A stretch of 64,000 nucleotides of DNA from Psammoneis japonica (lineage: Eukaryota), in assembly GCA_008632985.1 (NCBI GenBank), contig QPGO01000152.1:62001-126000 (forward strand). The letters run 5' to 3'. Both the position numbers and the translations under genes were made by a program. Positions 11,701 to 53,469 of this stretch are shown in pieces. Each line of letters opens with the position of its first letter. Within the stretch, counting starts at the first letter, position 1. Under the pieces are notes generated by a model. That model saw nothing but the letters and a program-made list of their open reading frames with translations, did no database searches and had not been told where the DNA came from.

Positions 11701-12520
11701 ATTTGAGTTGGATACCATCGAACGAACGAACGAACGCAACGAAAACGATGCGATGACTGCACACTGAGCACACGCTTCGCTGCTGCTTCGCTCTGCTCTG
11801 GCTGAACGGCTGCTGTCTCACTTTCTGCACGAGTTCATCATGATCAGTCAGTGTCCTGCACTGCACGGCTGTCTCACTCTCGCTGCATGAGTTCATCATG
11901 ATCAGTGTCCCAACACAAAAGTGTCGCCGTCAAATCAGCGACTCAAGAGCGCGCACACCCGCCAGCAGTCTTGCGCTTCCTTTGGACATTCCAGCAAAAA
12001 AAGAGGGGGGCTGACCTCAGTGCAGCTTGTTGTCAATGTTGCCAGCATCTTGGGCTTGTGTGACTTGAGCCAACTTGATGATCACATTGTGGCAGTCTCC
12101 AGATGACATGGCACAACTGGCGGAGAGCGCACAACGCTGTGCCCCGAGCTGCGAGCCAGAGCTGTGTGCTCAATCTTGTGTTTTCTTTTGTCTTGCTCTC
12201 CTTTTGCCCCTCCCCCCTTCCCCCCCGCTGGTCACTTGCCTGCTCTTCTTGGTGCCAAGAACACATTTCTTTGACTTCTGAGCATCGTGGCTCAATGGCG
12301 TTTTTGTCTGCCATGATGGGGCGTGTCCTTGCTGGCCAACTGTGCAATTGTTGCCAGCAACATCAATGTTTTGCTGGCACCCCCTCCTTCTCAGAGCCTC
12401 CCAGCACCACAATGGAGTGTGTGTTGAAAAAATTGGGGGTTGGCCAGCTGCAGCTGCCCTGGCTGCCATTGCCAAAAAGCGGCTTTGGGTCTCTTTTTGT
12501 GGGTGCAAAATTTGAGCAGC

Positions 12521-12779
12521 CACAAAATGACAGAAGTTGAAGATGACTGGGTGGAAGAAAACAATGACTCCTTGCTGTTGTCCAAATGGCGCAGATGAGT
12601 TTCTGTTCAGAGATCATCACAGGAGCCAAGAGACTGGTGCCAGGATGTCACCACTGCTGTTGCTGTTCTTGTGATCCGACAAGTCGATTGAAAGAAAGCT
12701 GCGTTGCACATCACGTGCAGAGCTGAGAGCACACACACAATTGTGAATGACAAAATAAAATCTTGCTCAAATCCCATCA
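12521..12779 (-). repeat. 3' LTR-like repeat of the copia element
   Basis: Starts TGATGGGATTTG directly after the PPT; aligns with 15202-15453; distal end approximate. Confidence 0.75.
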
Positions 12780-15201
12780 CTCCCCAGTTTGTTTGAAGAG
12801 TCTGCAGCAACAGATTTGAGATTGGGCTGGATGAAGGCCTCGGGATTGAAGCCCCAAAACATCAGAGGATGGAGAAGGTTCCAGAGGAGCAGCCCCAGTG
12901 CTTGCTGAGAATGTTGGCTGGGTTGCAGGAACCTTCAAAGCAATGAAACTTGACTTGAGGAAACCAGAGGCAATTGCCTCACGTGCATGGTGGAATGAGA
13001 GGGTGGTGTGTCACTTGTGCAACTTGGAGTGTGGGACAGCAGCACCATCTGCAGCCAACTTGTTGTCTCCAAACATGTGACACATGTTGTGAGCGGGGAT
13101 GCTGAGGTGATGCAAAGTGATGCACAGATCAATGATCTGTTCAACACATGTCCTTGCAGCAACAAACTCAGATCCATGCATTGCAGTCTTGACTGTTGCT
13201 CTTCTTTCTTGGAAAACAACAGGGGAAACTTGTTGAGGAAATGGATGATGCCCGTGACAGAGTGTCCAGTGAGCACGCAATGGAACAAGTTTGCACCAAG
13301 ACAGTGAGTTGTGGTGATGAACTTGCCAAGTGGCTTGGGTGCATCTTGTGGGAGGAGCTCTTCTGCCTCTCCATGCATGGATTGAACCCAGTTGTGCACG
13401 GGCTCAGGGAGGTCCAAATGGCTGTGTTTCTTGGTGCGCACTCAGAGGGCACCATGTTGCATCTTGGACAGGAATCCACAGACACGTTTGGCATGACCCA
13501 GATGGCCTTGATGAGGTGCCATGCAGAAGCTGGACAGTGACACAATGGCTGCAGCAATGTCAATGTAACCGAGTGATGCAGCCCATCACAGGGAGGTCAG
13601 CCAACCAAAGATTGGAGTTGATGAATGCCATCAGGCTCAAGCAGTTCAAAGGTGTCAAGCTCAGGGGTGGTGTCCCTTCTCAAGAGGGAAAGCACATTGG
13701 TGCAAGGCTTCTTCCCAAAGAGATGTGTGCAGTTGTCAGCCATGCGCTCAATGCACTTGCAAGGAGCAAGGCACAGGGTGCCATCGGAATCATGGGTGAA
13801 GTTGCAACCAAGGTGGAACTCCAATGGTCCAGTGCCCTTGAGCTTGAGCTTGAGCTTGTGCTTCTCTGTGAGAGTGTCTGCAAGAGCTGAGAGTCCTTCA
13901 CGGTGAAGGCCAGGTTGTCCACATGCACCGTTTCTCCTTGGTTGTGGCTTTGAGACAGGCGTTGCCAATGCTGGTCACCCAAGTCTCCAGTTTGTTGAGT
14001 TTGGCCAGGAAGATCATCAGCCAAAGACCACAGAAGGACACCACTCCAGAGCAGACACTGTCAATGGGTGCATCTGTGAGGTGTCCATCGGCAACAAGTC
14101 ATGCTTTGTGCTGTCGATCATGTTTGACATTGCAGATGAGGTGCGCCCCAATCTTCTTGTGCTCTGCTGGGGCACTGGAGTCCTTGCAGTGTCTGCAATT
14201 GTGAAAGACTTTGTGCTCCTCACCAAGCTGGGTCATCTCAAGGTCCACTGCATCTCCCCACTTGTGGTTGCCATTGCACTTGTCAAGGGCCAAGGTGTGC
14301 TTGCAGCCCCGGGGCACATCACACCTGCACTTGTGTTGTGGCACAGTGGGAAATGAGTGCAGCTTGGCTTGGTTGGCCATGCTGTTCTTCTGGCACAGAG
14401 CTGTGGTTTGGAAGCATTTCCATCCATTGGTTTGAAGCAAACCATGCTCATGTGTGCAGATGGCACAGGTGATGGGATTGTCTTTGGCGATGAAAGAGGT
14501 TCCAACGTGATCCCCCCATGCTCCCATTCAAGCATGACATTGAAGCTTGAGCCTTTCCAGTGGGGGTCATGAGGTCTCAATGGTTCTTTGTGTGAAATGA
14601 TGCAACAGAACTTCCAGAGGGTGGCATCCTTGTCTTCTTGCTCCATGTGGTGCATGATGCCGCCATTGCAGGCAAGAATTTCCTTGCGTTCATCATTGTT
14701 GATGGAGCAAATGAATTTGACGAGTTCTGGGTTGTCACTGATTTCCCAGTCATGGTCTTCAATGGCCTTGACAACGCCGGCTCTGTGGCATTGTCCGTCC
14801 TCCCGTGGCTTCATGAGGAAGGTGCACCCAACAATGTCCTTGGGGTGAAAGACTTCTTTCCCAGTCATGGTCTGCAATGGCCTTGACAATGCAGGCTCTG
14901 TGGCATTGTCCATCTTCTTGTGGCTTCATGAGGAAGGTGCATGCAACAATGTCCTTGGGGTCAAAGACTGGCATTTTGGGCATCCTGATTGCCTCCCCAT
15001 CTGGCGAATCTGGTGAATCCTTGGAGTTGTGTCAGGATTTGATGATGGGTTGAGCAGATTTCCCATCAGGAGGATCAAGACAGAGGTTGCAGGCAGATGG
15101 GTTGAGGGTGGAGTGCACGTTTGATTGGCAAAGTGTCTTCTGAGTGTTGTCAGAGAGAATCTTGAATGTCATTTGATGACCCACGCCACACTCGGCAATG
15201 C

Positions 15202-15453
15202 CAACAAAAAACAGAAATCAAAGATGACTGGGTGGATGAAAACAATGGCTCCTTGCTGCAATCTAAACAGCACATGAGTCTCCATGCAGAGACCTTTGCA
15301 GGAGCCAAAAGACTGGTGTTGTGATGTTGGCACTGCTGTTGTTGTTCTTGTGAGCCAAGTGGCTCAAAAGCAAACCACATCATGCACCACACGCGGGACT
15401 GAGAGCACACACAATTTTGTGCAACAAACTGAAATCTTGTTCAAATCCCATCA
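15202..15453 (-). repeat. 5' LTR-like repeat of the copia element
   Basis: Diverged direct copy of 12521-12779 (shared agatgactgggtgga ... caaatcccatcac). Confidence 0.7.
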
Positions 15454-18400
15454 CAAAACAGAAAAGACCTGTGCTTCAACTTTCTGAAGAGAGCTCAGAG
15501 TCAGCTTGGTGCACCATGAAAAAAGAGTGTGCACCCCTCTTCCAACCCTCCCCTTTTTGCAGCTTTTCCAGGATGTGGCTTCCCTTCTCACTTGCCACTG
15601 TCTCACAGCAAGACTTGTCAATGACAAACAAATCACATTGTCATTGTTCAGCAGCTTGTGCAGCTGCTGTGAGGCAGCTTGCTTGGTGTGTCATGTGCAA
15701 TCTGCACACTGTTGCAACAAAAATGTCCAATGTTTTGTCCTCCAGACTTGTTTGAAAAACAATTTTGCACCACCAGCAGGATTGCTTTGGTGTTCTGAGG
15801 CTTGCTTTGCTCAACATGTTGCTTGCCACTCTCTCCCAATGAAGGCTCCTTGTGGGGAAAACCAAGTGAGGGCTGTGTGGCCTGCTGCTCCACTCTGGAA
15901 GCAAATTGAAAAAATGACTTGGATTGTGGGAGAAAGCACAGAAAGCAAAAAGGAGAAAAAGTCAAAAAAGTTGTCAGGACTTCAAAAACAAATTTGAACA
16001 AATTGTGAATGCACCTGACAAAAAACAAGCTCTCAGTTTTGTGTTTTTTTTTTGGTGTGTTGGGGGGGGGGGGGGGCAGGGTGAGATCATTTTTGGCAAG
16101 AAAGAAGTTTGAGGATGGAGTGTGCTGTGGCACAAAGGTGACTTGGTGAATGACCCTGCAACCACAGCAGAGTGCAACAAAATTGAGAGCTTTGTCTCTT
16201 GGTGTGACAAAGCTGGGATGCAGATGAGCTTGCATGCCCACCTCACATCAGGTGAGGTTTGTTCCCGAGTGCATCTTCTCTCAGTGGGTGACTCAAGCTT
16301 TGTCATTCTTCTTTAAAAGGGCTCTGTTTGATTGCCAGTGATTGTGAAAAAAAGATGCCTGGCAACAAACCAGCTTTTGTTCAAGACAAGATAGAGCGCT
16401 GCTTTTTGTTTGCATTGTTTGCCAGTTTCTTTTGCAAAAGCCACTGCCGGTGCATGTGTGGTTCAAAGATTGAGTGGAGGGGCTTGTCAGAGTGAATGTC
16501 TTTGCCAGCTTCTGTTCTGTGCTTTTTTGCCATTGAGAGCTGCTTCATTGAGATGGGAGGCATGTCTGACATAAAAGCTGTCCCCCACTCCTCATTTTTG
16601 CACTGCTTGGAAAACAGAGACAAGCTTTCTGCATGCACTTCACTCAGCTTCAGGCACAAGTGCACTTTGCTCACTTTGACATCTCCCAGGTTAACATGTT
16701 TGAGAGTGGGAATTTGGAGCAACAATGTTGTGCTCTTGTTCTTTGGGCATCAATTGAGGTGTGCAAGTGACAGCCACTGATGAAAAAGCCAAAAAGGGAA
16801 AGAAGAACGTGGCCTTGGTCTGGAGCATGCAATGAGGCCCTTGGCCAGGTGTGGTTGCCAAGAGCAGTGTGGGGTGAACCACAGCAGGTTGGGACAACAG
16901 AATTGTCACCTGGCCATTCTTGGCACAGATGAACAGATTGTGCTGGGCAGTGCATCAAAGCCAACAAAGATGGGCCCATCTGGAGAGCTTGCCAAACACT
17001 GGGGTGACAAAGGGGTGCATGTTGCATCATCTGGGGCAGCAGCTTTGTCTGCCTGTTTGCTGTTCAACAACTGGGCTGGGGCAAAACTTTGGTGGATTGA
17101 GGCTGTCCCCCAGCACAATGGTGAAAGAGACACTGAAACAAAGCCAGGTTGTCCATCAAAACAACAGATTGTGGGTGTGACAACAAGCAGTCTGCTTGTC
17201 CACACATGCTGTGGCACTCTTTTGTGTGCATCTCATGAGAAATGTGCTCATTTTCTGAGATGGCACCCCCAGGTTGTCCTCTTGAAAATGTGCCAAGCTC
17301 TTCTTTGTGTCTGAGAACAAGACCGCTGCTTGCACTCAGCAACAAGTGGACCAGTCCACCACAGAGAGAGGCAGTTGAAGGGAAGGTTGCTTTTGTTTCT
17401 CTGATGCACTCAGGTGGAGGACCTGCCCCGCAGCATCAGTTGAAGTGGGGCAGCAAAACCAACCAGCACATGCTTCCACAAACACCCAGTTGGGGTGCAA
17501 AAGCAACTCAACACAACAAAGAGCTGCTGCTGCCTGTGTTGCCAGCCATTGCTTCTCTGCCACAAGTTGTTGTGCACAAGCTTGTGTTTGGGAGGCTCGC
17601 ATGTGTTTCTCTCAACAGAGCTCTCATGAATGACTGAAGTCAGGCTTGGCACTTGCAGCATGAGAGCATTGCCACAAAGCAGTTCTGCAAACCCTGCATG
17701 CACCTGCTGTCTTGTTGGGTTGTTGCCTGGGCCAATCATCCACACCAGCATGTTGTCACATTGTTCAGTTGATCTGAAACTGTGGTGTGGTGTGGAGAGT
17801 GAAATCATGCATTTTGTGTGTGGTGATCAAGGTTCCTGGGATTTGTTTGGGCATCTTGACACAAGAACATTTTTCATGTCAGATTGGCACCATCTTTGTC
17901 AATCTCTCGGTGGGTGCAGCCAGTCTTTTTTTTGCTTTGGATGTGCAAATGGTTTGTTGTTGTCTGCCCCAGAAGATCACAACAGAGGGTGCCCCACTGG
18001 ACAAAAAAACAACTCCCACAATGGGTGGTGACAATCATTTGCATGCCAGACATCACACCTCATCCCCAGATCCTGGAGCTGTTTGGACAGTGCAAGCCAG
18101 ATGCTGACTTTCTGGTTTTGCAGAGTGCAGGTCCACTGCCCACCAGCAAATGGACTCTTGCTCATTGTGAGTTGCTGCTCCAGCTTTCATTGCAGAAATC
18201 TGTGCAAAAACTGCACCAACTTTCTGCACAAGGTTTTGTTGATGTGCAGTTTTTCTCTCAAGTTGAGCTTGGCAGAACTGCTGTTCTTTGTTGTTCTTTG
18301 CCTTGGATGACCTTTGTGCAAGAAAGTGGCAGACATGACAAGATGTTTCTCCCACAAGTCAAACTTGGCAGAACTGCCATGCCATTTGTTGAAGTCTCTG

Positions 18401-20800
18401 GCAACCTGTGCAATGAGATGGCAAAAGACAAGGTCGGTCAGATGTGCTGGTGAAAGGAGACGTTGCTTGCAAGCTGCACAGATCACTCCCACAACAGGAT
18501 GTTTTGTTGCCCAAGCAAGCTTGTGGGGGAATGCCACTGGCATCCCTGGCGGGCATTGTGACACCCCACAGTGCCACAGGCTTGGATGACAGCATTTTCC
18601 TTTCTTTTCTTGGTCATGCAAAGCTCATTTTAGTCATCCAAAAGGACTCTGGTGGCTTCTGGCATCATGGTGCACAGTGCCCCAGGTGGTGCACCACTGG
18701 GCTGGGTCACAATTTTTTGTTCATTGGGAAGTGTGGCAACACACTGTGAACTTTTGCTTTGGCATGCACAGATGCAAATGGGACTTTGTGACAGTGCTTG
18801 ATTTGCAAGGGAGAGAAAAAAACATGCTGCCAAGACATCAGAAAAAGAGAGATCACTTGCAGGCCCATGTGACTGACCACACTTGAGTTTGCACTGCCTG
18901 TTGTGCAGCAAGTGGGTGCAATCTCTTCTGGAGGAGAGAGATCCAGCACTGGCGGCACCGTTGTGGAGGAAGAGATGAACAATCAAGAAGAGGAAAATGA
19001 TGCTGGCAAGTGGAAGCAGAAGAGAGCAAAAAAAAAGGCGCCATCAAGACCACCACCTGTCCCAGCAACTCTGCAGCCAGCAACAACTCAAGACATCCAG
19101 AGTTGACAAAACAGGGCACTGTTGTCTGCTGCTTTTCACTGATTTGATGTGTGCAATTTTCAGCAACAAAACAATGAACAGCTGCAAGGGAATGCTGCAG
19201 GTGGATGCATGATGAAGAAAATGCAAAAAGAAGGGTGCACAACATGTTTGGAGCTGATGTGTTCCCACAGCTCAGAACAGGAAGTGTGCGAGAGATTTCT
19301 TGTGGCTCCAAATGACAACAGCAACAATTGCCAGAATGTCTTTTCCCCTCAGTGGCAAAGACAATGATGGCAAAGGATGTGACATTGTCACCAAGTTTGC
19401 CACAAGATGTTTCAGAGGACAAGCTGTTGTCTGCCTTTGCAAGAGCAAAGGGTCCAAAAATGGATGTCCACCAGACACATCATGACTGTGGACTGACAAT
19501 GGGGCAACAAGAGCAAGAGAGAGAGACAATGAGCTGCCAGTGGCCACACATGCACAACAGTCAAAGCTGCAGCAGCCGCAGCAGCAGCAGCACAGCTCTG
19601 GCCACTTGCAAACATTTGCCAGTGTGAGGAGCAGCTGAAGCCACTCAAAGCAAACACACTCTTTGGGGTGTGCAGGAGCAATGCAGAGCCAGCAAAGGAC
19701 CAGAAGCTGGCAGAGAGAGAGAGAAAGAGAACAAACAAAGCACTCCAGCTGATTGCCTCTCACCTCCAACATCATGAACATGACCACAACAACATGCCTG
19801 TGGATGCCTTCATCAAAGCCCTCCACGTTGCAATGAAAAACAACATGTTCGCATTTAGAGACACCACCTGGCACCAGCACAATGGAGCCACCATGGGCAC
19901 ACCACCCACTCCTCCATGCACCACCCTCTGCCACGCCCTTTGCAAAGACATGCTCCTGCCTGGACAAGTTTGGCTCCCATCTCTGCTGCTGCAAATGCCT
20001 CATTGACAATGTCTTTGGCATCTGGCACATCACCAACCCTGCCACCAATGCTGCAAACTGGGAAGCATTTGCCTCCAGGCTCAATGACTTTGACATCACC
20101 TGAGCCATGAGCCCAAGAAGCCACCAAGTGAACTTTGTGGACCTTGTGACCTCGCTCCAAGGCTCACACCTCCATGCTGCCCTCTGTGACAAAGAAATGA
20201 ATTTGTGCATGTGCACCCCACCACACTCAGCTCACCCACCTGGAGTGCTCACCGGCCCAATCATGGGCATGCTCTTTCACTTAAAAAATCTCTGCTCCAA
20301 CCAAGATGATGCCAAAGCAAAAAAGAAATTGCTCTGCCACCCACTGCAAGCCCCAGTGGCTGCAAGCCCAACAAACCACTGCCGCTCTTCTACAAAGCAT
20401 GCAACCTCATCTTTGGCAATGCTGCCAGAGCTGAAGAGCCCCAGTCAAACCCCATGTTCTTGCACTTCCCATGTCTCATCCAAATGTGACCCACCATCAA
20501 GCAAACTGCAGAAGCTCTGGAAAGGCACAATGGCCCACCCTCCCTGCTCACAATCCCTGCTGCAGTTGCTTGCATGACCTTGGAAAGTTGCTCCGATGTC
20601 ACAACCTTTGCATCTCCCATGCCCCCCCCATTTTGTTCCACAAGGTTGCAAACAGAGAGGCCACTGAGAGACAAAGAGAGATGGGGGGAGAGAGAGAGAG
20701 AAACAGCATGGTGAGTTGATTTGAAAAAGCAGTCAATTGAGTCCACCCATCTGTCCCCCACCACTTGGATCTTTTTAACGCAACAACCTCAACCACGTGA

Positions 20801-20869
20801 ACAACAACAGCCGGCCACTGATGAAGCCACCATGAAAGTCTCGCCCCTGACTTTGGCCAACATTGTTGT
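20801..20869 (+). ncRNA. Minimal type I hammerhead ribozyme candidate, copy 1
   Basis: Stem I GGCCA(20813-17)/TGGCC(20854-58), CTGATGA 20818-24, 1-bp stem II, GAAA 20834-37, stem III AGTC/GACT, CUU cleavage triplet. Confidence 0.7.
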
Positions 20870-22518
20870 GCCTGCTGTTCATTGAAACAGTTGGACAAAC
20901 ATCCAAGCTGGTGGCTTCACCTTGGCCACTGGTGTCATCTGTTTGTCACATTTGACAGAGCATCTGCAGCACCAATTCTGTTTGTTCATTTGAGAGAGAG
21001 TTGAAAGACAACAATGGACGCTGCAACCAAGACCAGCATCCCCAAATGTGTGCATTTTGATTCAAGAACTGTGGTGAATCCCACCCACCAGCAACCAAGG
21101 ACACCCCTTGCCACCGCCACCCAACACATCAGGGACCACATCGCATTGCTCCAACCTGAGACAGCCGCCATCCTTGAGAGGCTTGCACTCCAACACCTTC
21201 AACTGCAAGCTGAGGCCAATGACAAGGCCTTTCATGTCAAGAAGATGAGTCATGATGAGGAGTTTATCCCCCACTCAGCCAGAATCAATTTTGAATTTCA
21301 AATGTCAAAAGTGGCTGAACAGAGCCAGGAGTTTGCAGCTCTGCAGGAGGAAACAAACCACCCCATCAAACACACCCAAAATGCTTTCAAAAAGCAAACA
21401 ATCACAGCCACCAAGATTGAGTGCAAAGTCCTTCAAGAAGAAATTGTGGAGTCCTGGGCAAAAGCCATCCGACTCTCAACAGAAAGTTTCACACTGTGGC
21501 AGACAGCGTCACCACACCTGTCAACACCGCAGTGGCCACTCTTCTCAACTGCTGCCACGAATCCTTGCTCAAGCACATCAAAGTCCAAAATCACAAAACT
21601 TTTCTTGAAAAGCACCAGACCGCAAACAATGTTGCAACCTCACCCCAACCACTGATTGCCCCCACTGCCAGACAAACCAGCACGCAAGAAGAAAATGGCA
21701 CCAAAGATTCTCCATTTCTGATGCAGCTGCAGGCAACAGCACAAGTGCCAACACACACTGCAGCCCAGCAACAAGCCAAAAGCCAACTTGACAAAATCTT
21801 TTGACTCCTGTCAAAAAAGATGGGTGAGGAGCATTTTGAGTCAAAGCAATGGAAAACACCAACATGGAAATTGATGGAGAACCTGCAGTTGACCCCACCA
21901 CCCTGAAAAAACCAATTCACAAGGAGATGGAGAAAATCACCAAAAGGCCAACTCAGCAGGTCAACTCACTCTTGCAACACATCAAATCCATGAAACGACA
22001 GTTGTCAAACAAACAGAGAGGCCCAACCAGCAATGCCGGTGCCTCATCACAAGAAGAAAAAGGCAAAGGTGCCTCGCTGGGTTGCTCAAGGAAACAATGC
22101 CCTCCATGTGACCACAGAGCCAACAATGCCAACAAAGACACCACTGGCGCCAACAAAAACAATCGCCGCTGCTCCAAATCAAAGCAGCCATCACAGAAGA
22201 AGCAGCAGCACTCCAATGCCAACCGGAACAGGTGCCAGAGATGACATCAACATGAATCCACCAAATGCATGGATTTGTTGCTGATCCTTCCAAATTGCTC
22301 TCACACAACACCTTTCCACACCTTGGTGACATGCCTGCTTGGCACCACTTCAGCAGACCATCACATCTCTCCTTTTGCGACTGCACATCTGTGCTCAAAC
22401 CACCCAAGAACCTTGAATCACTCCTTGGTCTCAGCCTCAAGTTCATCCCCACACCTCACTTCACCAGCAGTGGCAAGTCACTCAAGTTCCAAGACCATGC
22501 ACTTGGACGCTTCAAGCT

Positions 22519-23620
22519 GGACCTGGACAAGTGTCACCACTTCGCAAATGCGCCAATTGACAACAACAATGACTGCAACCCAAGAATGCACCTTCGATCC
22601 AACTGGATGCCACCCCCTTGGAACAAAACCAAAATCGTTGAATGCCGCTGCATGAATTTCAAAACAAAACTTGTGCAGCTCTTTGCCAAACGCCATGGCA
22701 GAACCAACCTCCTGCCCCACCAATGCCGCACCCTCACCTGTCTGCACAAACAAGACAACTTTGCAGTTGCCCCATGTGACAACAACCTGGGCCCTGCCAT
22801 TGATGAAAAAACTGAGTGCATCAAAATGGCGTGCCATGATCTCAACAACGCAACTGCACACTGCTGTCTCACCAAATCAAGAAGCTTCTCACTGACTGGC
22901 TCAGAAAATGCAAAGCCGATCTAACCCCAATGGAACGCAAGCATCTCAAACATCACATTGAGACTGACCAAAGTCCATTCCCTGTCTTCCACCTCACTCC
23001 AAAGGTGCACAAGCCCCTGCCACTTGAATCGTGACCCATTGTCTCTGCAAGAAGTGGCAGCCTGCCACATGGGACCTGGGCAAGTGTGACCACTTCGCAA
23101 ATGCGCCAATTGACAACAACAATGACTGCAACCCAAGAATGCACCTTCAATCCAACTGGATGCCACCCCCTTGGAACAAAACCAAAATCGTTGAATGCCG
23201 CTGCATGAATTTCAAAACAAAACTTGCGCAGCTCTTTGCCAAACACCATGGCAGAACCAACCTCCTGTCCCACCAATGCCGCACCCTCACCTGTCTGCAC
23301 AAACAAGACAACTTTGCAGTTGCCCCATGTGACAACAACCTGGGCCCTGCCATTGATGAAAAAACTGAGTGCATCAAAATGGCGTGCCATGATCTCAACA
23401 ATGCAACTGCACACTGCTGTCTCACCAAATCAAGAAGCTTCTCACTGACTGGCTCAGAAAATGCAAAGCCGATCTAACCCCAATGGAATGCAAGCATCTC
23501 AAACATCACATTGAGACTGACCAAACTCCATTCCCTGTCTTCCACCTCACTCCAAAGGTGCACAAGCCCCTGCCACTTGAATCGTGACCCATTGTCTCTG
23601 CAAGTGGCAGCCTGCCACAT
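22519..23620 (+). repeat. 553-bp near-perfect tandem duplication inside the PLE RT ORF
   Basis: ggacctgg(a/g)caagtgt at 22519 and 23072; duplicated translations in the ORF track. Confidence 0.95.
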
Positions 23621-24910
23621 GGCTTGGGCATCTGGGTGGACGGCAAGCTGCAAAAAGTTGCGCGCAAGCAACCATCACACTTTAAAAGCTTGTTGGACCT
23701 AAAAAATGAACTGGTCCAAATGGCGGCATCACCGACTGCCTCCTCTTCACTTCAGATGCCAAGTCCCTCTGCTCAAATGTTCCAACAAGCTGGGCACTTT
23801 GAGCAATGCATCACAGCCTGCCTGCAACGACATGAGAGTGAATTACAAGATGTCCCAACAGAGGATCTTGTCAAAGCCCTCCACATTGCAATGAAAGACA
23901 ATGTCTTTGCCTTTGGAGACACCATGTGGCTTCAACAAACACACCACCCACTCCGCCATGCGCCACGCCATTGTGCACATTGCACAAAGCCGTGCTCCTG
24001 GAAGAGTTTGGCACCAACCTTCTCTTCCACAAGAGATTTGTTGATGATGCATTTGGCATTTGGAAAATCACCAAGCCTGCCACCGACGATGCCCATTGGA
24101 CAGCATTTGCCTCCAGAATGAATGGCTGCAACATCAATTGGGTCACGAGTTCCAGATCACACACAGCAAACTTCATGGACCTCACCATTCATCACACTCC
24201 AAGGCTCTCACCTGCACACCACTCTCTGTGAGAAAGAAATGAACCTGTGCTTGTGTGTCCCGTCACACTCAGCCCACCCACCTGGAGTGCTTGCCAACCC
24301 AAATCATGGGCATGCTCTTCTGCTTTAAAAACCTTTGCTCCAATCCAATCAACGCCAAAGCAAAAATGAAACTTTTGCATCTTCACCTGCTTGCTTGAGG
24401 CTGCAGACCCAGCAAGCTCCAACCCGTCTTTCAAAAAGCACACGACCACTTTTTGGCAACATGACAACAGCAGAAGTGCCCCCATCCAACCCTCCCATCT
24501 TCCTCCACGTCCCATGTCACCCAAACGCCAAACGACCTGCCATCAAGCAAATTGCAGAATGCCCGGAAAGGATTGATGGCCTCTCCCCCTCACTCCCAGC
24601 CACTTGCCAACATTCGAAATCACAGCCGGCAATGCATTGGCTTGGAGTGCATGACAGTTTGTTGCAATTGATCACGCAACCTTGGCAACCTCCTTTCGCA
24701 TCACATCCTGCACATCTCCACTGGCCCCCCAGTTTCTTCCCACAAGATTGCAAACAGGGAGGCCACTGAGAGAGAGAGAGAGCAAGAGAGAGAGATGGAG
24801 AGAGAGAGAGAAACAGCATGGTGAGCTGATTTGAAAAAACAATCAATCTGGTCCACCCATCTGTCCCCTGCCACTTGGATCTTTTTAGTGCAACAACCTC
24901 AACCACGGAA

Positions 24911-24978
24911 ACAACAACAGCTGGCCGCTGATGAAGCCACTGTGAAAGTCTCACTCCTGACTTTGGCCAACGTTGTTG
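24911..24978 (+). ncRNA. Minimal type I hammerhead ribozyme candidate, copy 2
   Basis: GGCCG/TGGCC stem I plus distal CAACAAC/GTTGTTG helix, CTGATGA 24928-34, GAAA 24944-47, stem III AGTC/GACT. Confidence 0.7.
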
Positions 24979-26459
24979 TGCCTGCCATTTGTCGAAACAG
25001 CTGGACATGTGTCCGAACTGGCAGCTCTGCCCCAGCTGCTCTCATTCTTTGTTTGTCACATTTGATGGAAAATCGGCTTTGCCAATTTTGTCGTTCGTTC
25101 ATTCGAGAGAGAGAGAGAGACAATGAGCTGCTGGTGGCCACACATGCACACCAGTCAAAGCTGCAGCAGCAAGAGCAACAGCAGCAGAGCTCTGGCCACT
25201 TGCAAATCTTTGCCAGTGTGAGGAGCAGCTGAAGCCACTCAAAGCAAACAGGCAACTCTTTGGAGTGTGCCATTTTGTGCTGCCAAGTTGCAACATCATG
25301 GGTTGAGCTGCAATGCAGGGAAAGCAGCTGTGCTTGGCAGCCATGGGTGGGGACTCCACAGAAATCACATGGGAGCTGTTTTTTTAGAAAAATCAACCTC
25401 GTTGCCCAAATGGACCATGGCGGTCATCATCGTTGTGACAAAAAAAAGTGTCATCATCACGATTCGTAAGACTCAACGTGCGGTCAAAACGCGCAAGTCC
25501 GAGCTTCCATCTCCCACCACAGCCTTCGCCAAGCAACAACCAAATCAACCCACCGTTTCTCACCAAATCGCTTTCGCACCCTCAGGATCATCATTGGAAA
25601 AGTTGCACTTTTGACACCATCGTGTCCGCCGTCATTGAATTGGGTGGGGTGCAGCGAAGTGCAACTTTTGGCTGCAATCTCACCAAACAATTTTGAAATC
25701 TCTGCGAGTGCCCACATGTCTCGTTTGAACAACATGCCACCATCCAAATGGCACTTTCGTGAGACAGAACTGAGCCGCCTGATTGGAACAAAGTCAAAGG
25801 ATGGCCAGTCGGCATGCACGCAAGTTGGAAATCTGCTCACTGCATTGCAAAAGGGATGTTTTCACAACGTCAGGAAGGGCACGGACGGACTGCAGGGTTT
25901 CCCGTGTCAGATCTGCTCTGCACAAAGCACTCAACAAAATTGTTTTTAAGATTCATTGTTTCAATCATGGATGCCCAGAAGATTTCAAAACGAGTCATCT
26001 GCAAGAGGATGTTGCTGTCTCAAGAGTGCCAGGACACTTTGCGATCGGGTGTGGCATGGAGAATGGATGGATGCAACTCTTCTGATTCAAAAGAATGGCA
26101 ATGACAGGAAGTGCAAGCGACCCCACTTTCATTCCAGAATTTCGACAAAGGTGAGTCTCTGACAGCGCAGTCATTGAAGCGAATGTTGTGTTCTTTCATC
26201 ACTTGTTTGCCTCACCTTTCTGTGGTTGTGTTTCATGGGCATGTGCGAATGCTGCAGTGGGAACCGATCTTTTTGGTTTGGCTTTGTGACACCAAAAGGC
26301 ATGATTGATTTTCTGTTTGTCACGGAGACCCATCGCTTCTGCAAAGACACTAAAGAGCCCTTTTCTTTTCTTTCTTTTTGTTGCAAGCTCGTTGACGACA
26401 GTGACTTCTTCACACACAATCACTCGGATCATCACAGTGGCAACAGCATCGCTGTCGCG

Positions 26460-27290
26460 CGGGACAAGAGTTTGCCGTCAAGGGCATTCCAACCAAACAA
26501 CAAACCCTGTTGACTGAGGATTCACACCACACTTCAAGCCAAAGCCACCGTGTTGCAGGAATTGAATCATGCCTTCAGCGACACGGTGTGTTTTGCAGCA
26601 GCAAACCCAGTGTTCTCATTTGGTGAGTGCAGCGGGAACGCATCTGGTTGTGCCTGCTGTCTTTTGTTGGCAATGTGTGAAACAATGGCAGCACTGACTC
26701 TTGCCCCTCCCCCAAATGACAGCTTGCCCACAGTTCATGGAGATTTTGCACAGTGGTGGCCTTCTTGATCGGATCATGTCCAAAGGCAAGAACTCTGAAG
26801 TTGAAAACTGCCGAGTCATGAGACGATTGCTCAGTGCTGTTTGACATCTCAGTGAGGACCGCCAGGTCCTTCATGGTGAGTTGAAGCCAGAAAATGTTCT
26901 GACAATTGATTGCAATTCTGATGCGGCATTGGTGTCAAGCTGACAGACTTTGGAGATTGGCCAAAAAGGACGAGGGCCTCCTGAAGACCTTTTGTGGAAT
27001 GCCGCTGTGCTTTGCACCCAAAGTGTTGCAATGCCATCACATGGTTGCTGGATGAGGAAGTGCAGCAAAAAGGCTGACATGTTTTCGTTGGGAGTCATTC
27101 TCCACATCTGCCAATTGGCATTCCTCCTTTTGATGGCGACACTGCTGGAGCCGCCAAAGGTCAAGCGACGTTTGCGCCAGATGCCTTTGCCAATGTTTTG
27201 GAGGCAGCCAAGGATTTGGCAATTGGGTGGCTTCCGCCAGATCCAAAGGACCTGTCAGCAGTGCAAGAAGCGTGTCAGCACGAGTGGATG
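26460..27290 (+). pseudogene. Intron-containing CAMK/Chk2-like Ser/Thr kinase pseudogene (may extend 5' to ~25400)
   Basis: Ordered subdomain remnants across frames: GQEFAVK, VLQELNH, MEILHSGGLLDRIMSKGK, LHGELKPENVL, VKLTDFG, LKTFCGMPLCFAP, ADMFSLGVILH, AKDL..ACQHEW; GT-AG intron ~26623-26733. Confidence 0.85.
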
Positions 27291-30200
27291 TCGATCGATG
27301 ATGGAGACACGCGTGTTCATCCTCTGGATGATCCCGTTTTGGCCAACTCCGAAGACGATGAGATTGACACAAAGGGATGGAGGACAAAGAAACGACTCAC
27401 ATCGGTTTGCAAACAGAAGAGGAATCAGAAAATGTGGATGTTGGTGAAACTTTGGAAGAGGACTCAACGGTGATGAGCAGAAGGATGCGAACACGAGAAC
27501 AGAGGAGACAACAAGCAAACGTGACCTTGTGAGAGAGGCGAATTGGGTTGTCACTCCAAGGGTGACGGGGAATTTTAAACACAGAACAGACAAGTGGAGA
27601 GAACAAAAAAGGTAGATTTCTTTGTGCTTGTGAAAATGTGACCTCAATTTCACCGCAAAAATGGTGCGCATTTGTGCTCAGTTGATTTTTACACGGTGAA
27701 GTGCGGCAAAATCGAGAAAAGTGCTGTTTCACGTTCTCTCCAACTGCGCAGTCAGGTGACTTGGTAGATGCACCACAAGAGACGCGAGAGCTTGCACTTT
27801 TGATGTCGGTCGCCATTGGCATCATTGAAGCCGCAACAACATTCCAAAACCACAAACGAGTCAACGCACAAAAAACTTGAATTTTTTCAGTCGTGATTGC
27901 ACGGCAAAGTGCGGGAAAATGGCGGTCACTTCATCGCTCTCAATCTCGACAAATGCAAGGCCAATGAAAAAGTTGTGCCCCGTTCCAAGCACCTCTGAAC
28001 ACCCTCTGTCGAACAAGGTGACTCTCGTTTTGATCAAAAAAATTTGTTTCTGCGTGATTTCTACAGCGCCCCTCCCACAGCAGCTGAAAAAGGAGGAGAG
28101 GGTTTGCTTTTGCAACTCAGGTGACGACTTTGAACATGTGGGGCATTTTGCCATGGCTTTGTTGCTGGCTTCTTGCCAAGGGAGATGGTTGAGGAGGCAA
28201 AATGCAATGTGCAGCCACTGGTGAGAGCCAGTGCATCACGGTGACGTGTTGCAGCCTTTGAGTGTCACAAAGGGCGTGACAAAAACAACCTTTTGTCGGC
28301 ATGCACACTGCATGATGAATTCACAGCGGAGTGGTTCATCGCAACCATCAGGCAGGAGGCCAGGGGTTCGAAACCCTGAGTGGGAGTTGTCTGCAGCAAC
28401 GTTGATCACTGTCGAACGCGCAAAACTCTGTGCAGTTCTGTGTGTTCCTTCGCACGCACCCACACTGTTCCGCCAAAACCGTGCAGTGTCAGTGCACGTT
28501 GGCAAAGAGCCGCATGGACGCGTGACACATGGGGAGGAGTGCAACATGCAGCCACTGACAAGAGTTGATGCATCACGGCGACGTGTTGCAGCCTTTAAAT
28601 GTCACAAAGGGCGTGACAAAAACAACCTTTTGTCTGCACGCACACTGCAAAAAGCTCCACATGCCTGCACCATCATAAAAGACACGAATGCATCATGAAC
28701 ATGATGCCATGAAGAGCACAGCAGTGGAGCCACTGCTGGAAGAGGCTCTCAGAAACAAGCTTGGGGACAACACTTTTGGCACAGAGCTGTGGGTGTCAGA
28801 AGATGCTGCTGCACACACTGAGCTGTTTGCACCAAAAGAGAGGAGAAGGAATCTTTCTTTTTTTGACAAAAGCAGCAAATGCCACCTCTTGAATGCCGCT
28901 TGTTGGGTGATGAAAAAAACAGAACAAAGTTGTCATGCTCAAAGCTTTTGGGCCCAAAGGCTTGCCAAGTGGTTCGTGACTGTGCAAAGAGGTGCAAAGA
29001 ATGACATGTCCGGTGAAATAAATGTGTCAAGGCATGCACCCACTTTCACATCAACATCGGTGCAGACAATTGCTCCATCTCTTTGGAGCACTCCCAGATG
29101 TTGGAAAAAGTCAGCCTGCATGGATGAGAGAACCGTGTGAGAGGAGAAGAAATCTTTCTTTTGTTGACAAAGCAGCAAGCGCCAACTCTTGACTGCTTCT
29201 TGTTGGGTGATGAAAAAAACAGAACAAAGTTGTCATGCTCAAAGCTTTTGGGCCCAAACGCTTGCCAAGCATTGCAAGCTGGCAGTGCCTGCCACCTCTT
29301 CTGGGCCTTCATGCTCAATTCCTGAGAGCTTCAATGTGACCATCAAACTGTGCAATGCACTCTTGCTTGTGTTCGCCCCCCTCCCTGGCACTGAAAAGGC
29401 TCTGAAGTCATTGATGCCAACAAGCACTCTTTGAGCTCCCAGGCTTCATGGCGAGTGGGCCAGATTGCTTGTTTGCTGAGTGGACCCAGTGCATGGTGAA
29501 GCCTTGCCATGATGAGAAGACAAGGCAAGCTTCTTCCACAGTGCAAAGCTTTGGTGCACAGGCAGGACTCAACCCACTTGATTGCTGCAAGGTCAGAGCC
29601 TCTGGTGTTTTCTTTTCCAATCTTTTGACTTTTTCTTCAACCCACACAATTGTCTTGTTGGTTGTTGCTGAAGAGCCACCCAAGCACAAGAAGATCATGC
29701 TGGCAACCCTTGGGGCTCATGTCTCATCCATCATCTTTGTCATTTGGGTGAGCTGAGAGGCGCAGCAGTGCCAGAGCCTTCTCCAGCTTCATGGCCACAC
29801 CGTCTGATCATTCCGCTGGATTCTTGACGGCAACGTGAGAGGAAACAGAAGAGTGCAGCCAAAGGGCACTGTTCAGAAAAAAAAATGTTCCGCACTGCTG
29901 GTGCTTCAGCAGTGCTGTGCTGCATGTTTTGCAAAACAGAGCATTGTCTGCTGCCAGCTGCCCAGGGTGGCGAGAGTCGCCAACATGATGGTGCAGAGAG
30001 CAAAGCCAGCTCGATTGACAACAGAGAGGGCGGCAGCACAGGTGTCAGTGCTGAGGGCAATGACAACGTTCATGGTTCTTTCCCCCCTCAAGGAGCGAAC
30101 CTCTCATGCTGAAACTGCTCTGCATGCATCTGCATCTCAAATTGATCCACGCATGCACCACAAGCGGCAAGCGGCAAGCCGGTGATGTGAGAGATCCAAG

Positions 30201-30521
30201 CAAGGAGCAAGCCTGCACAAACTAACTGTCGGTCATCACAGACAGAACGTACGTACAGCACAGGTACAATTGTACCGTATGTAAAGAATATACCAGAACC
30301 TTGCGTCACGTCCTGTCACGTCACTCTGACGTTTGGCCTGCTCACGTCGAACCAAGAAAAACGTGGCGGGAAGGCTATGCACGTGAAATCAGTACCGGAT
30401 CTGCAGTAGAAATGGCCGCATCATTCATCACTCGCATCACCGAACTCACGCACACAAGAATTCTTTCTGGACTAAGACAGAGGATACCGGTACAAATCCG
30501 AAGGAGTAAGTACTTTTGACC

Positions 30522-31004
30522 ATGACGGAACACGACGACCCTGTTGAAACGGCGATGGACAAGCTTAAGCCCCTCTTCTCCCAGTTGACCTTTGGGAGCA
30601 TCATGGGATTCAGCTCTGGATACGCTATGAAGAAAGTCGGCAAGGCCGTGGCTGTCGTTGTCGGAATGGGTTTCGTTGCACTTCAGGGCGCCGCGTACGC
30701 GGGCTACATTGACGTGAACTGGGACAAGCTCAAGGCCGGAGCGAAAAAGAAGATTGATACGGTACGTTTGCAATTTGGAGAAGCTTCCGATAGGCTTAGA
30801 TCTAGATTAATCATGATTCTTTCGGTTCTGGACTCATTTTTCCTTCATTTTTGTTTGTTTCTTTTTCCGCAGAACGCTGACGGCAAGCTCGACAAGGAAG
30901 ACGCCAAGGCGTACTGGAGAAAGCTCAAGAGTATCCTCACGTATAACCTTGGCTCCACAACTGGTTTCTCTCTTGGATTCGTCTACGGTGTCAAGTCTGG
31001 TTAA
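30522..31004 (+). CDS. FUN14 family protein (exons 30522-30761, 30873-31004)
   Basis: QLTFGSIMGFSSGYAMKKVGK...GYIDVNW; GTACGT...CCGCAG intron 30762-30872. Confidence 0.9.
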   Translation: MTEHDDPVETAMDKLKPLFSQLTFGSIMGFSSGYAMKKVGKAVAVVVGMGFVALQGAAYAGYIDVNWDKLKAGAKKKIDTVRLQFGEASDRLRSRLIMILSVLDSFFLHFCLFLFPQNADGKLDKEDAKAYWRKLKSILTYNLGSTTGFSLGFVYGVKSG

Positions 31005-31459
31005 ACAGATCTGACTTGGAAGTATATGGAGGGGATGATTCGGCGGATAGATCAGTCTCCGCCCCGAACGAAGAGGTCGTGCTACGTTTTTAGTCAGGGC
31101 CTCGTAACATATATGTCTAGAAGCGATAAAACAAAACTTTCTTGAGTCGAATTTTGCTTTGATGTGCAGAAAATGCATGTGCTACGGGTATGGATCGCGA
31201 CGGATTGAATAGTCGAACTCAGTAATACACGGTTCCAGAAAATCAGACCACTGTCATGTTAGATGTGAAGTGTACTCCTGAATTTGATGGTTCAAGACAT
31301 TTTCGCTACTAGCCATCCTTTTAGGTTGCTACACATCTCACAGGAACGACCGATGGCGCGAGTAGTGCGGCACACATTACTGCTAGCGGGAGCTTCGTTA
31401 AACTCTAGCAGACGCGCTCTCTTCTTAGAGCTAGTTAATCTACCGCTACAAAACAGCTC

Positions 31460-33780
31460 TATTCTGCAGCAACCAAAGAATGCGCTGGGGCCTGTCTCAT
31501 CCTGCAATGAGTGATTTTCTTTGCATTGAATGCATTGCAAAAGTGCTTCTGAGGCAATGTCATCGTGGTCCCACCCAGAGCTGGAACATGTGTCACTCAC
31601 CAATTTGGACAGCAAGAAAGAAGAGTTGGCAAGAGACAAGATCGGTGCTCAAGTCCAGCGTGGGATGGATAAGACAAAGCAGAGCCAAGCTGAGACAGAG
31701 GAGAGAGTTGAACAAGAAAAATTGGCTCTCCAAATGCAGAAGAAAGTCAGCAGTGTCAAGGCTGCCGCCCAAGCTGAAATCTGACATCAAGCTTGGTGCC
31801 AAGAAGGAAGAAAAGGCACAGGCTTGGAACAGCAAACAAGAAAGTTAACAGCATCAAGGCTGCCACCCAAGCTGAAATCTGACATCAAGCTTGGTGCCAA
31901 GAAGGAAGAAACAAAGGCACAGACTTTGAACAGCAAGAACACACATGCGTGTGATGGATGATTTGTGCGATGTTGCTGGCACAGGTTGGCTGCACATCTT
32001 GATTGCATCACAGGGACTGCCCAATGCAAGCAAGATGTTCATCACCTTTCATTGCAAAATGATGCACAGTGTGATGGCTGGGTCTTGTCTCTCACACGGC
32101 TTTTTTGTGTTTGCACCAGGTGCAGCACCAGCAAGAGATGTCAGCTCAAAACATGGGCACTTTGTCCCAAAGTTTTGCCAACATCTCTGGTTTCCAAAAA
32201 GATGTTTTGCAAGGTTGTGCCAGCTCAAACAATGTCACACCATGATGCAGAATTCTCAAGCTCACTGGCTGCTGGTGTGCCAACAAGAGTTTGTTCATCA
32301 GCCACCCTGTGTCAATCTCTCCAGTGTGGTGGCAGCAATCACATTGGCACAGAAGCTGCATCTGCCCAGCCAGCAGCAGCAATGTCAAGGTCACTGGAGT
32401 GTAGAACAACAGCCATGCTGGCAGTTTCTTGCAGCTCCTGCTGTCACTCAAGCCTTCTGCCCAAGCCATTGTCAGAAGCAGCCTTTGCAGCAGAGAAGCC
32501 TGGGGGCTTGGTGGCTTGACTGTGTGTGCCAGAACAAGATCAACTTTTTTACCATGGAATTGCTCACATTGAATGGCGAGTGTGAAAATGCCTGCAAACA
32601 ATTTGTTTCCTTGGTTGCAACAGAGCACACCATGGTGGCACACACAAAGAACGTGTCAAAAATCACCTCCACTGGTCTCCATCACACAAAGTCACATGTG
32701 AGCCACCTTTGGTTTGCCCCAGCAATGCACCTGTGTAAATTTACAGAGCTGATTGTTTTCCATTGGCCCCTTCATGAAGACACAATCAGAGAAATCATTG
32801 TTGCATGATGGCAGCCACAAAAGACTGTTTGAGTGCAAAAAACAAACAAACAATGAGTGGGTGGAGTTCATCCTCTGAACCAAACAATCAATCTGCCAGC
32901 CCCATTTTTCCTTGCAGCAGGAGCAGCACCAGTGCAGGAGCACCAACAACACCCACTCTGCCAACTCAGCGAGGATGTTTGCAGCCTTGCAGCAACTTGC
33001 ACACAACAACTGCTGTGCAGAACCAGCAGCAACAACCACACCAGCAACCACAGCCACATTTTCAGCCACAGCCACAGCAGCAAAAAGCCATTTTGGCAAC
33101 CACAGCAACAGAGTTGGCAGCCTCAGCAGAGTCAAAATCAGCAGCAGTGTCAGTTGTTGCCAAATCAGTTGTTGCAGCAGAGCCAGCAACAACTTCATCC
33201 ACCATTGCAGCAGAGCTGACAACAACCTTGCATGTCATTGTTGCAACAGAGCCAGCAACAACCTTGCCAGTCATTGCAGCAGGCCAGAGCTGGCAGCAAC
33301 AACAATGTGAGCAGCCAAGAAAAGAGCCACAGCAAAAGAGTTGCAAGTCAGTCGCTGGTTGCAGCAAGGCAGTCAGGTTCAAGAAAACAATTGGAAATGA
33401 CCAATGTTGCTGCCTCTGATGCTCTCCTTTCATCAGCCACAGGAGCAGACGAACCCTCCCTGGACTTGTTTCTGCAGAGTGCTTGACAAACTCTGCACAC
33501 AACAATGGAGAACCTTTTTCCATGTTTGGCTTTTGTGCTGGTGTCAAAACAAAACAGCACCCCCAGCTGAATCTGAAGCAGCATTTGTTGTCAATTCATT
33601 CAAATCAGTTGCCAATGAATTTGTTGCCAGAAAACCACAAAGGCAGGGTGCAGTTGCATTGCAGTTGAGTGCGCTTGACAAACACCGCCCAAAGAATTGC
33701 AAATTTGAAGCCAAGAATGCAAAAAGTCTTTTGTCACTAATGTTGTTGCAACAACAGTTGTGCCTGGTGGTGCTAAACGC
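31460..33780. other. TpA-depleted zone 2: unidentified low-complexity/repeat remnant
   Basis: Very few TA; internal duplication ~31755-31835/31853-31935; CAG/CAA-rich tract 32920-33320. Confidence 0.85.
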
Positions 33781-47500: not shown

Positions 47501-49485
47501 AAGGGTGTCATGGCCGGCAGTCTGCACTTGGGGCTCCCTCGCATTTGCATTTGCGTTGGAGAACGTCGAGCAACTCTGCTCTGCTCTGTTTTGCCATTGG
47601 CGTTGGTGGGGCCGGGGCAGCGGGCCAAGGCTGGAGACAATGTGGCATGCTTGGGCCCGGTCTCAAATTTGGTCCCCGCCCCTGATTGCAATGAACTCCT
47701 CAAATGAAATGGGGGGACAAGCACTGAGGGTTTGTTCGGAAGACAGGGTTTTTGGCGGAGATGGTTCTGCCGCAGAAAATTGAGCACCGCTCTCTCTCTA
47801 GCTGCTGTAGTTGATTGTCCATGCAGACACCATGACACCATACATGGCATCTCTGGCTGCGGCAATCCTGGCATTGATTCTATGAGACACCACACAAAAC
47901 ACCACATTTCGCTAAAAAAAAAGTGTGCAGGCAATTGATTTGTGGCCCCAGACCCCGACGAACTCATTTCTTGTGTGTTCAGAAGCCTTCAAATGCCACC
48001 ACAAATCAATTTTCCCTTGTGTTGTCCATGAGCCCCCATGCCCTGTGGTGTTTGACACTTTGCTGTCAACGGCAAAACAATTGGGGAGCATTGGAAAAAT
48101 TGTGGTGGCGTTTTGGATTGAGACACCATGTTGATGCCATGTTTTGTCCAAATTGGTTCCTCCTCTCTCAGGTGGAACTCTCTGCATCGAAGTCTGAAAC
48201 CAAAAGATTTTGGATTGCCGTGCTTGCTGCTGTCAGAAAATAGAGGCGTGACGATTGCTTGCACCAATCATTTTGCTGCATTTTTTTACCTGTTGAGTGA
48301 GTTTTGCGCCGGGCGTCCAAATTAACCACAACACATGACGGTTGTTTTTCGAAACAGGGTGCCATGGTGTGCACTTCTGCATGACCCACACGACCTGACT
48401 AACATGCGTTGGGGCCAGAGCAGTGCATGGTGCTGGTTCTTTTGCTTCTGACCGTTCTGTCTTCTGTGAGGTTTCACGAGTTCATCTGTGCATGTTGATG
48501 TTGTCTAATTTGAGGTGCGGTGGCTCAAGTGAAAGTGAAAGTGCACGAAATTTGTGCATTGATGCAGTTGTCTTTGCTGAACAGTTAGTTGCAACTTGCG
48601 TCCATCCCATTGTTTCTGTCCATGCTCAATCCGCGGTGGCTCAAGTGAAAGTCTGAGTGTGTGAAAGTTGTGCATTGATGTGGTTGTCTTTGCTGAACAG
48701 TTAGTTGCAACTTGCACCCATTCCATTGTTTCTGTCCACACTTGTTCCGCAGGATCCTTGCTTGCTCCTTCTCCTGCTCCATTGCTCCCACTTCTTCTCC
48801 AGCTCCTCCTCGGTGAAAAATCTCCCACCGGTCTGTGGTGGTGCCGCCGCCCACGCTGCCTTTAGCTCCTCCATGGTTGAATCATCCCTGGGCACGACCG
48901 TTGCTTCCACATGACAACCGTCCACTCTTGTGTTGTCTGGCACAAGCACAGATGAGACATCATAATTTCCTGAAGCAAGCTTGAACGCCGCTCTTGCTTC
49001 TTCCACTGTAATCTTCTCCCCACCTTCTTTGTTCATTGCTGACTGAAACAGTTCCGCATCTGTCTGCACCCTTTTCTTGTCCTCTCCAGTTTTCTTTGGC
49101 TCGTCTGCCTTCTTTGTTTGTTGTTGCAAATCCATTTTTTTCTCTGTTGCTCCATTTTGTGTGACGTTTGCGTTCACGTGTTCTTGGTTTGTTGGTTGAA
49201 ATCCATTCGACGTTGTGTGACGCATGTGCAGATTTCTGCGCAATGTGCTGGTCTAATCGAAATTTTCGATTTTACAAAATTTTTGTGTTTTTACAGTTGG
49301 TTTCACCAAACAGTTGCACAGTGGTTGGGCATCCTAATCTTGTGTTTGCGTGCTACATCAATGCTTCTGCGCACTGTTGCTGAGAGAAATGCGTGGCGCT
49401 TCAAACCTTCATGAGTCTTGTCAAGGCTTTGCAGCCTTCTGGGACCTTGTGTCTTTACTCTGGAGAGCACAACATGCACCCAATT

Positions 49486-53300: not shown

Positions 53301-53469
53301 TGGTTTAAGCTGTTGCTTCATCTTGACAAGTTCAAAGCAGTTGCCCATCAAAAGCAGTTGATTTTTCCTCTTTCTTAGTTGGCTGGTTGCAACCAGGGCG
53401 AGTTCCGGTCACCGCAACAGGGGCATGCTTCACGACCGGTGCAGTCCGATCACCGTGAAGGCTGCAATC

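Follow-up and report, generated by a model that had tools for sequence, protein, structure and literature searches.

To our knowledge, repeat-induced point mutation (RIP) and the decay of 5-methylcytosine (5mC) were for a long time the only known routes by which genomes mutate their own repeats. The present analysis concerns a 64,000-nucleotide stretch of contig QPGO01000152.1 (Psammoneis japonica, assembly GCA_008632985.1, positions 62,001 to 126,000; here called the window), in which blocks of dead mobile elements have lost nearly all of their TpA dinucleotides and gained TpG and CpA in their place, beside genes of ordinary composition. We consider it highly probable that a locus-targeted mutator, specific for TpA and converting A to G in chromosomal DNA, has acted on both strands of these silenced elements to saturation.

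The phenomenon has already been described once, very recently, in a preprint without peer review: Mettrop et al. (bioRxiv 10.64898/2026.01.13.699255, April 2026) report hypermutation of A/T to G/C, at TpA only, in integrated viral DNA of Bigelowiella natans. According to that text, 230 of 231 new mutations found in two viral regions of mutation-accumulation lines were A>G or T>C. These GC-biased changes lay without exception at TpA; they appeared in 11 of 15 lines at ~6e-7 per site per generation, a de novo rate ~1000-fold over background. The targets were an integrated giant virus (186 kb, single-copy) and a virophage (25 kb), in which TpA still stands at 3.3% and 9.2%. The preprint also lists 324 coding sequences whose TpA frequency averages 0.0018 and in which DDE and reverse-transcriptase (RT) domains are over-represented, as well as 124 clusters of windows poor in TpA and rich in CpA+TpG, and it proposes an ADAT2-like protein as the agent. 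A first-pass annotation of the window, which knew of no description of such a process, is thereby outdated on this point. Among the other papers listed by the literature searches, judged by title or abstract and, for a survey of RIP (PMC12543289), by word search, none appeared to give a further account of TpA-erasing hypermutation in fungi or elsewhere.

So far as the text of the preprint goes, the window shares with B. natans changes confined to TpA>TpG/CpA on both strands, aimed at silent foreign or mobile DNA in an otherwise normal genome. Likewise shared are long-term TpA depletion with enrichment of CpA+TpG, the TpA frequency being 0.0018 there and 0.0017 here (32/18450 in the main domain), and a patchiness of mutation, which spares some lines there and some copies here. 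The two differ in what is hit: a giant virus and a virophage with TpA remaining in B. natans, saturated transposon arrays making up half of the 64-kb window here. CpG is depleted in the window, whereas a word search of the preprint's text finds no mention of CpG. B. natans is tabulated with 8 introns per gene, which average 182 bp, and a repeat content of 12.9% (PMC13746701, Table 1), whereas the large genes here are uninterrupted and half of the window is repeat, a contrast that suggests a different organism.

Older systems offer partial parallels. RIP, in Neurospora and other ascomycetes, also makes dinucleotide-specific transitions in mobile or duplicated DNA on both strands, with lasting inactivation and intact neighbours; however, it turns CpA into TpA, creating TpA and lowering GC, whereas here TpA is destroyed and GC goes slightly up. 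RIP is moreover triggered by duplication, and the giant-virus target in B. natans is reported as single-copy. The name 'reverse-RIP', given to the pattern in the first pass, stands as an analogy only. The decay of CpG in methylated repeats, of which TpCpG hypermutation in Pucciniomycotina (Microbotryum) is one form, has in common with the window a gain of TpG/CpA and a low CpG ratio (observed/expected, o/e, 0.07-0.8 here), but it cannot remove TpA, and the CpG loss seen here is weaker, variable and separable. Animal ADAR and APOBEC enzymes use deamination as restriction, and ADAR favours a 5' U; they act on RNA or single-stranded cDNA and are strand-asymmetric, whereas both strands of resident DNA are changed here, including those of a DNA transposon.

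TpA-erased blocks: extent, edges and specificity

Dinucleotide o/e ratios were counted per kilobase over the window, TA positions were listed, and blocks were delimited by two-state segmentation (Table 1). Between 12001 and 30000 each kilobase holds 0-4 TA (o/e 0.00-0.07), with CpG o/e of 0.07-0.79 and mean TG/CA o/e of 1.50-1.98; gene-bearing kilobases hold 15-56 TA (o/e 0.26-0.80), with CpG o/e of 0.80-1.21 and TG/CA o/e of 0.96-1.35. The main domain retains 32 TA in ~18.5 kb, against an expectation of ~1185 from base composition, or of ~700 if the flanking genes set the o/e (0.55-0.75 there, versus 0.027 in 11714-30222). The near-loss of TA over this distance, first noticed by eye, is thus borne out, down to a count of two TA in 12001-15260 (at 12756 and 13566). 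Segmentation also agrees with the further intervals named in the first pass (31.5-33.8, 44.6-55.0 and 60.5-64 kb): the depleted segments are 11751-30200, 31501-33700, 44601-49250, 49801-52000, 53251-54950 and 60501-64000, which sum to 32.7 of 64 kb. Two pieces of the third block, 49251-49800 (TA o/e 0.36) and 52001-53250 (TA o/e 0.27), are partly depleted.

The edges of the main domain (11713/11714 and 30222/30223) are sharp on a scale of tens of bases. On the left, dense TA end at 11713 and the next TA is at 12756; on the right, the final TA within the domain is at 29019, and from 30223 TA again occurs every 5-30 bases. An unaffected island of 1.3 kb with a FUN14-family gene sits between the main domain and the second erased block, which shows that targeting is precise. 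A (CGAA)n-like microsatellite at 11717-11760 falls exactly on the left edge.

Half of the residual TA lie in TTA (16/32) and 20/32 in TAA, often in TTTAAA-like contexts. Either this context is poorly handled by the mutator, or new TA arise from the abundant TTG/CAA.

G+C is nearly equal inside the main domain (0.496) and outside it (0.477-0.493), so that the domain is hidden in a GC plot, as the first pass had anticipated. The same composition, with TpA o/e of 0.027 in place of a TpA excess and no shift towards AT, led us to reject RIP of the ascomycete type for this locus.

Neither AT (o/e 0.62-1.13) nor AA/TT (o/e 1.03-1.38) is depleted in the main domain; TpA is the specific target and, more weakly, so is CpG. 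These ratios bear on causes that would involve no targeting at all, such as selection against TA (avoidance of nuclease or insertion sites), GC-biased gene conversion, or errors of polymerase eta at WA (W, A or T) in heterochromatin. Each of these is generally known to lower TA or raise GC somewhat in other systems. However, undepleted AT and AA/TT rule out both a general conversion of A or T to G or C and a targeting of WA. TpA, moreover, is reduced 20- to 30-fold and the edges are sharp, and conserved tyrosines are destroyed in genes that are dead, so their composition is not selected for function. We give such non-targeted causes next to no credence. Polymerase-eta mutagenesis, one of the agents suggested in the first pass, predicts A>G at TA and AA alike and is contradicted by the AA/TT ratios.

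Repeat copies and strands: TpA as the ancestral state

One public sample contains this stretch; contigs derived from the reads of run X1 were compared with the window. Against multi-copy contigs, 10 of 21 listed differences read TG or CA in the window and TA in the other copies. At 28421-28513, eight of nine listed differences are of this kind, and the window reads CA, TG, CA, CA, TG, TG, CA, CA in order within 92 bp. Other genomic copies thus keep TA, and the repeat families still include TA-bearing members; this answers one of the refuting outcomes named in the first pass, in which members of these families would all be equally free of TA.

Paralogous copies within the window point the same way. 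Four pairs were aligned and adjacent double transitions pooled, giving 63 CA<->TG changes, while the other six kinds of double transition occur 2-8 times apiece. Such an excess is expected if an ancestral TA (or CG) became TG in one copy and CA in the other. Between the copies at 19813-21011 and 23871-25123 there are 38 aligned TG<->CA dinucleotide pairs, so these copies were mutated independently. The tandem duplication further along (Table 1) lacks TG<->CA pairs and has half of its differences at CpG, which indicates that it arose after the loss of TpA, with CpG decay continuing.

Both products occur throughout, the TG share of TG+CA being 0.30-0.62 per 500 bp. The claim that adenines of both strands were hit is supported by the interleaving of TG and CA within 92 bp and along one gene (see "Lost tyrosines: the record in proteins"). 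TA is the ancestral state; both strands were used, copies were mutated separately, and the process is confined to mobile DNA, where it is near saturation.

Lost tyrosines: the record in proteins

Tyrosine accounts for 0.0-0.5% of residues in long open reading frames (ORFs) of the depleted blocks, versus 1.8-4.8% in four host proteins, and histidine and cysteine are elevated in the same ORFs. One gene remnant that records the direction of change is a Helitron-like PIF1-helicase gene, for which seven homologues with 35-42% identity in alignment were available, three of them with a Helitron_like_N domain. Its tyrosine content is 0.5%, versus 2.9-4.1% in the homologues. Columns with tyrosine in at least 75% of homologues number 19; the window reads Tyr in two of them, Cys in ten, His in five, and Phe and Leu in one each. 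The changed columns carry TGY and CAY codons, with Cys and His alternating from one end of the gene to the other. Other conserved columns are kept: Trp 8/8, His 8/8, Cys 8/9 and Gly 27/29. Conserved Ile is kept at 4/16 (Thr 4, Met 2, Val 2, Ala 2) and conserved Arg at 19/28 (Cys 3, Gln 2, His 1), and the column of the in-frame TGA stop reads Arg in two of five homologues.

The Penelope-like RT remnant tells a similar story. Its relatives have 4.1% tyrosine and the consensus motifs FYLTxKVHK..RPIVS, YIDD and NLYLYIPPHSAHPPGVL; the remnant itself has 0.0%, and in eight conserved Tyr columns tyrosine is kept in none (Cys 3, His 2, Gln 1, Thr 1, Leu 1). Replacement of conserved tyrosines by both His and Cys within the same ORFs, a central observation of the first pass, accordingly holds at 15 of 19 columns in the Helitron-like gene and five of eight in the RT remnant, and the strings AMHGSEF and NLCLC that it quoted are present in the translations.

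The combined record of DNA and protein bears on the possibility that transcripts of the elements were edited from A to I by an ADAR-like enzyme, with its 5' U preference, and the edits fixed by reverse transcription and insertion. A UA context would suit the neighbour preference of ADAR (bioRxiv 10.64898/2026.01.13.699255, discussion), and retroelements are among the targets. Against this, both strands are hit, and the two outcomes intermingle over 92 bp as well as over the length of single genes. The erasure extends equally to a DNA transposon, the Helitron-like element, and to non-coding stretches. Editing of this kind is highly improbable here, and we rejected it on the interleaving of Cys and His outcomes in one gene and on the involvement of the Helitron-like transposon.

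Support from reads

Assembly or basecalling might in principle create such a pattern, through long-read miscalls of modified bases or over-polishing, and the sequence is known from one sample and one study with an unrecorded library type. Contigs from X1, however, show 0 differences from the window over 16062-19644, at a depth of ~60-70 as in the flanking genes, and single X1 contigs span both domain edges (11690-12557; from 29229 on). The agreement of independently assembled contigs and the bridging of both edges exclude an artefact of assembly or polishing. A palindromic site that was miscalled should give a mixture of TG and CA, yet the calls are fixed, and the same reads show normal TA in adjacent genes and in other repeat copies. 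The probability that a technical artefact explains the pattern is almost negligible.

Depth in X1 also gives an impression of copy number: 2,400-9,000 at 12.3-15.7 kb and ~52,000 at 28.3-29.0 kb, compared with ~65 for single-copy sequence. As to whether duplication triggers the process, erasure is complete at 15.7-19.0 kb although the depth there is that of single-copy sequence; erased copies would, though, fall below the 90% likeness threshold. In all, X1 contigs differ from the window by 144 transitions and 28 transversions. In the FUN14-family gene, run X2 skips 111 nt bordered by GT..AG at 30760-30872, an ordinary spliceosomal intron, and this joint marks X2 as RNA-like, although no RNA data set is listed for the stretch.

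CpG loss: a weaker companion

CpG loss accompanies TpA loss; it is weaker, variable and in places nearly absent. The first bases of the main domain (11714-12000) have no TA at ordinary CpG density, and at 27001-28000 TA o/e is 0.06 with CpG o/e of 0.79. Stretches free of TA with near-normal CpG make the two losses separable.

Among the 15 listed single-contig differences between X1 and the window in the domain, seven are CpG<->TpG/CpA, and two turn a residual TA (at 21265 and 23845) into CA/TG in X1. These differences hint at recent or continuing activity of both processes. CpG loss is probably a second, slower process, namely deamination of 5mC in methylated repeats; the low CpG ratios with their gain of TpG/CpA, and the Cys, Gln and His found at conserved Arg columns, fit this. 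It could instead reflect a weaker cytosine-deaminase activity of the same enzyme, and a single deaminase of dual specificity may even act on both steps, at the adenine of TpA and the cytosine of CpG.

A probable TpA-directed mutator: proposed mechanism and agent

In the mechanism that we favour, elements would be rewritten after insertion, the A of 5'-TpA-3' becoming G on either strand. The outcome would be TpG or CpA, and the process would continue until TpA was almost gone. Tyrosine codons and TAA/TAG stops would be destroyed along the way, which would disable the elements permanently. Recruitment would presumably be by whatever mark distinguishes silent chromatin, and the agent would be an ADAT2/TadA-type adenosine deaminase that acts on DNA. 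The process is plausibly the same as that measured in real time in the B. natans preprint. Given the chemistry and the candidate proposed in that preprint, we see about an even chance that a DNA-acting adenosine deaminase is responsible. The locus-limited A:T>G:C mutator of DNA at TpA postulated in the first pass is thus upheld by the Tyr columns, the TA-bearing copies, the TG<->CA excess and the sharp edges.

A different chemistry might lead to the same outcome. 5-Hydroxymethyluracil prefers TpA in some protists. The T of TpA, modified for example to this base by an enzyme of the TET/JBP type, could mispair with G, or a methylated adenine could be deaminated. TpA is palindromic, so the attacked base of the pair cannot be told from sequence, and the CpG loss alongside suggests base-modifying chromatin marks. 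The sole experimental precedent, however, as far as the preprint's text goes, favours an ADAT2-like deaminase, albeit without proof. We therefore regard a modified base as unlikely, though less so than the other alternatives considered here.

Several points weigh against the TpA-directed mutator as we describe it. The agent is inferred from the chemistry and from the preprint's candidate. The domain is only apparently silent: the RNA-like run X2 mostly leaves it uncovered, and this was not counted as evidence. The library type of X1 is unrecorded, and the same sample or study possibly lies behind the assembly, so that its support is only partly independent. Pfam confirms none of the element classes assigned in the main domain, and the RT alignment is noisy, with three of its eight Tyr columns holding residues other than Cys or His. 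The lean of residual TA towards TTA and TAA is also left unexplained by the model.

With the window, the kind of process seen in B. natans takes in transposons and runs to saturation, probably in a second lineage. It is an independent and far more extreme example, in which the ancestral state can be recovered beside normal genes. A wider reading is that TpA-directed editing is a widespread eukaryotic defence against transposons and viruses, ancient or repeatedly evolved, here saturating and coupled to CpG decay of the cytosine-methylation type, in an intron-poor and repeat-rich organism unrelated to Bigelowiella; we hold this tentatively, leaning slightly towards doubt. Should the lineage truly be different, the process would be general, and it would account for 'unannotatable' Tyr-less repeats missed by GC-based and RIP-index scans. 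It would also suggest that a naturally occurring enzyme edits adenine in chromosomal DNA strictly at TpA, which would be of relevance to genome biology and base editing alike. A simple screen, rho(TpA) versus rho(TpG+CpA), can be applied to any assembly.

Element content and neighbouring genes

The erased blocks are arrays of dead and apparently silent mobile elements. Among them are a Helitron-like element, a Penelope-like RT element, repeats of no assigned class and, probably, an element of the copia kind (Table 1).

Table 1. Features of the window, in window coordinates
Feature	Coordinates	Strand	Remarks
Main TpA-erased domain	11714..30222	.	TA o/e 0.027, CpG 0.285, TG 1.87, CA 1.65
Probable copia-like pol remnant, by eye	12900..14950	-	AMHGSEFVAA...FGDN...FHHAREAIASG; 35- to 130-fold repeat depth
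Older paralogous copy of element at 23871-25123	19813..21011	+	Identity 69.6% (BLAST), 73.6% (MAFFT)
Tandem duplication, ~553 bp, 98.2% identity	22519..23630	+	0 TG<->CA pairs; 5/10 differences at CpG
Penelope-like reverse-transcriptase remnant	23393..24766	+	3 stops read as X; 611 relatives at E<=0.001
Very high-copy repeat, ~0.7 kb	28300..29010	.	Summed contig depth ~52,000 vs ~65 single-copy; hundreds of copies
Normal gene island, FUN14 family, 111-nt GT..AG intron	30223..31500	+	TA o/e 0.75, CpG o/e 1.08
Second TpA-erased block	31501..33700	.	TA o/e 0.042, CpG o/e 0.11
Third block, composite	44601..54950	.	Depleted subparts 44601-49250, 49801-52000, 53251-54950: TA o/e 0.08-0.14
Helitron-like PIF1-helicase gene remnant	49489..52524	-	Pfam PIF1/AAA_30 match; 1012 codons, one frame, single TGA stop
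Fourth TpA-erased block	60501..64000 (to window end)	.	TA o/e 0.075, CpG o/e 0.52

A Pfam scan of the 107 ORFs that reach 100 aa in 11.4-34.5 kb gave nothing above curated cut-off inside the main domain, and six-frame read-throughs (stops as X) of 11.7-17.9 and 17.7-24.0 kb matched 0 families; 23.8-30.3 kb was covered by the ORF scan. The copia-like label is unconfirmed in the same way, with 0 Pfam families at 12900..14950 in ORFs and six-frame read-throughs. For the RT remnant and eight tested relatives Pfam likewise returned 0 families, and the label 'Penelope-like' refers to motifs seen by eye. No viral gene was found in the window, Pfam being the search that would have reached one. No RNA gene came up when the window was scanned with Rfam and for tRNAs, and this includes the very high-copy repeat (28300-29010), which occurs in the RNA-like run X2 as well.

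The host genes are compact. NUP84/107, TAF1-like and Sel1-kinase genes have uninterrupted ORFs of 3.1, 4.0 and 4.5 kb, and the one intron seen in the window is the 111-nt intron of the FUN14 gene. In the TAF1-like gene (34059-38566, minus strand) the bromodomain is divided over two frames at ~34535, probably by a short intron. Near-perfect tandem repeats of 108 bp (95-97%) occupy 8815-9266, inside an ORF at 8360-9388 (plus strand) whose product has only weak coiled-coil-like Pfam hits. The Sel1-repeat/protein-kinase gene at 55410-59951, a 1514-aa ORF, has an architecture that is commonest in Mucoromycota clusters of a protein atlas, which we take as a lead only. Its Sel1 repeats are visible at the DNA level as an array at 55575-57040, with self-matches of 72-84% identity at offsets that are multiples of ~108-111 bp.

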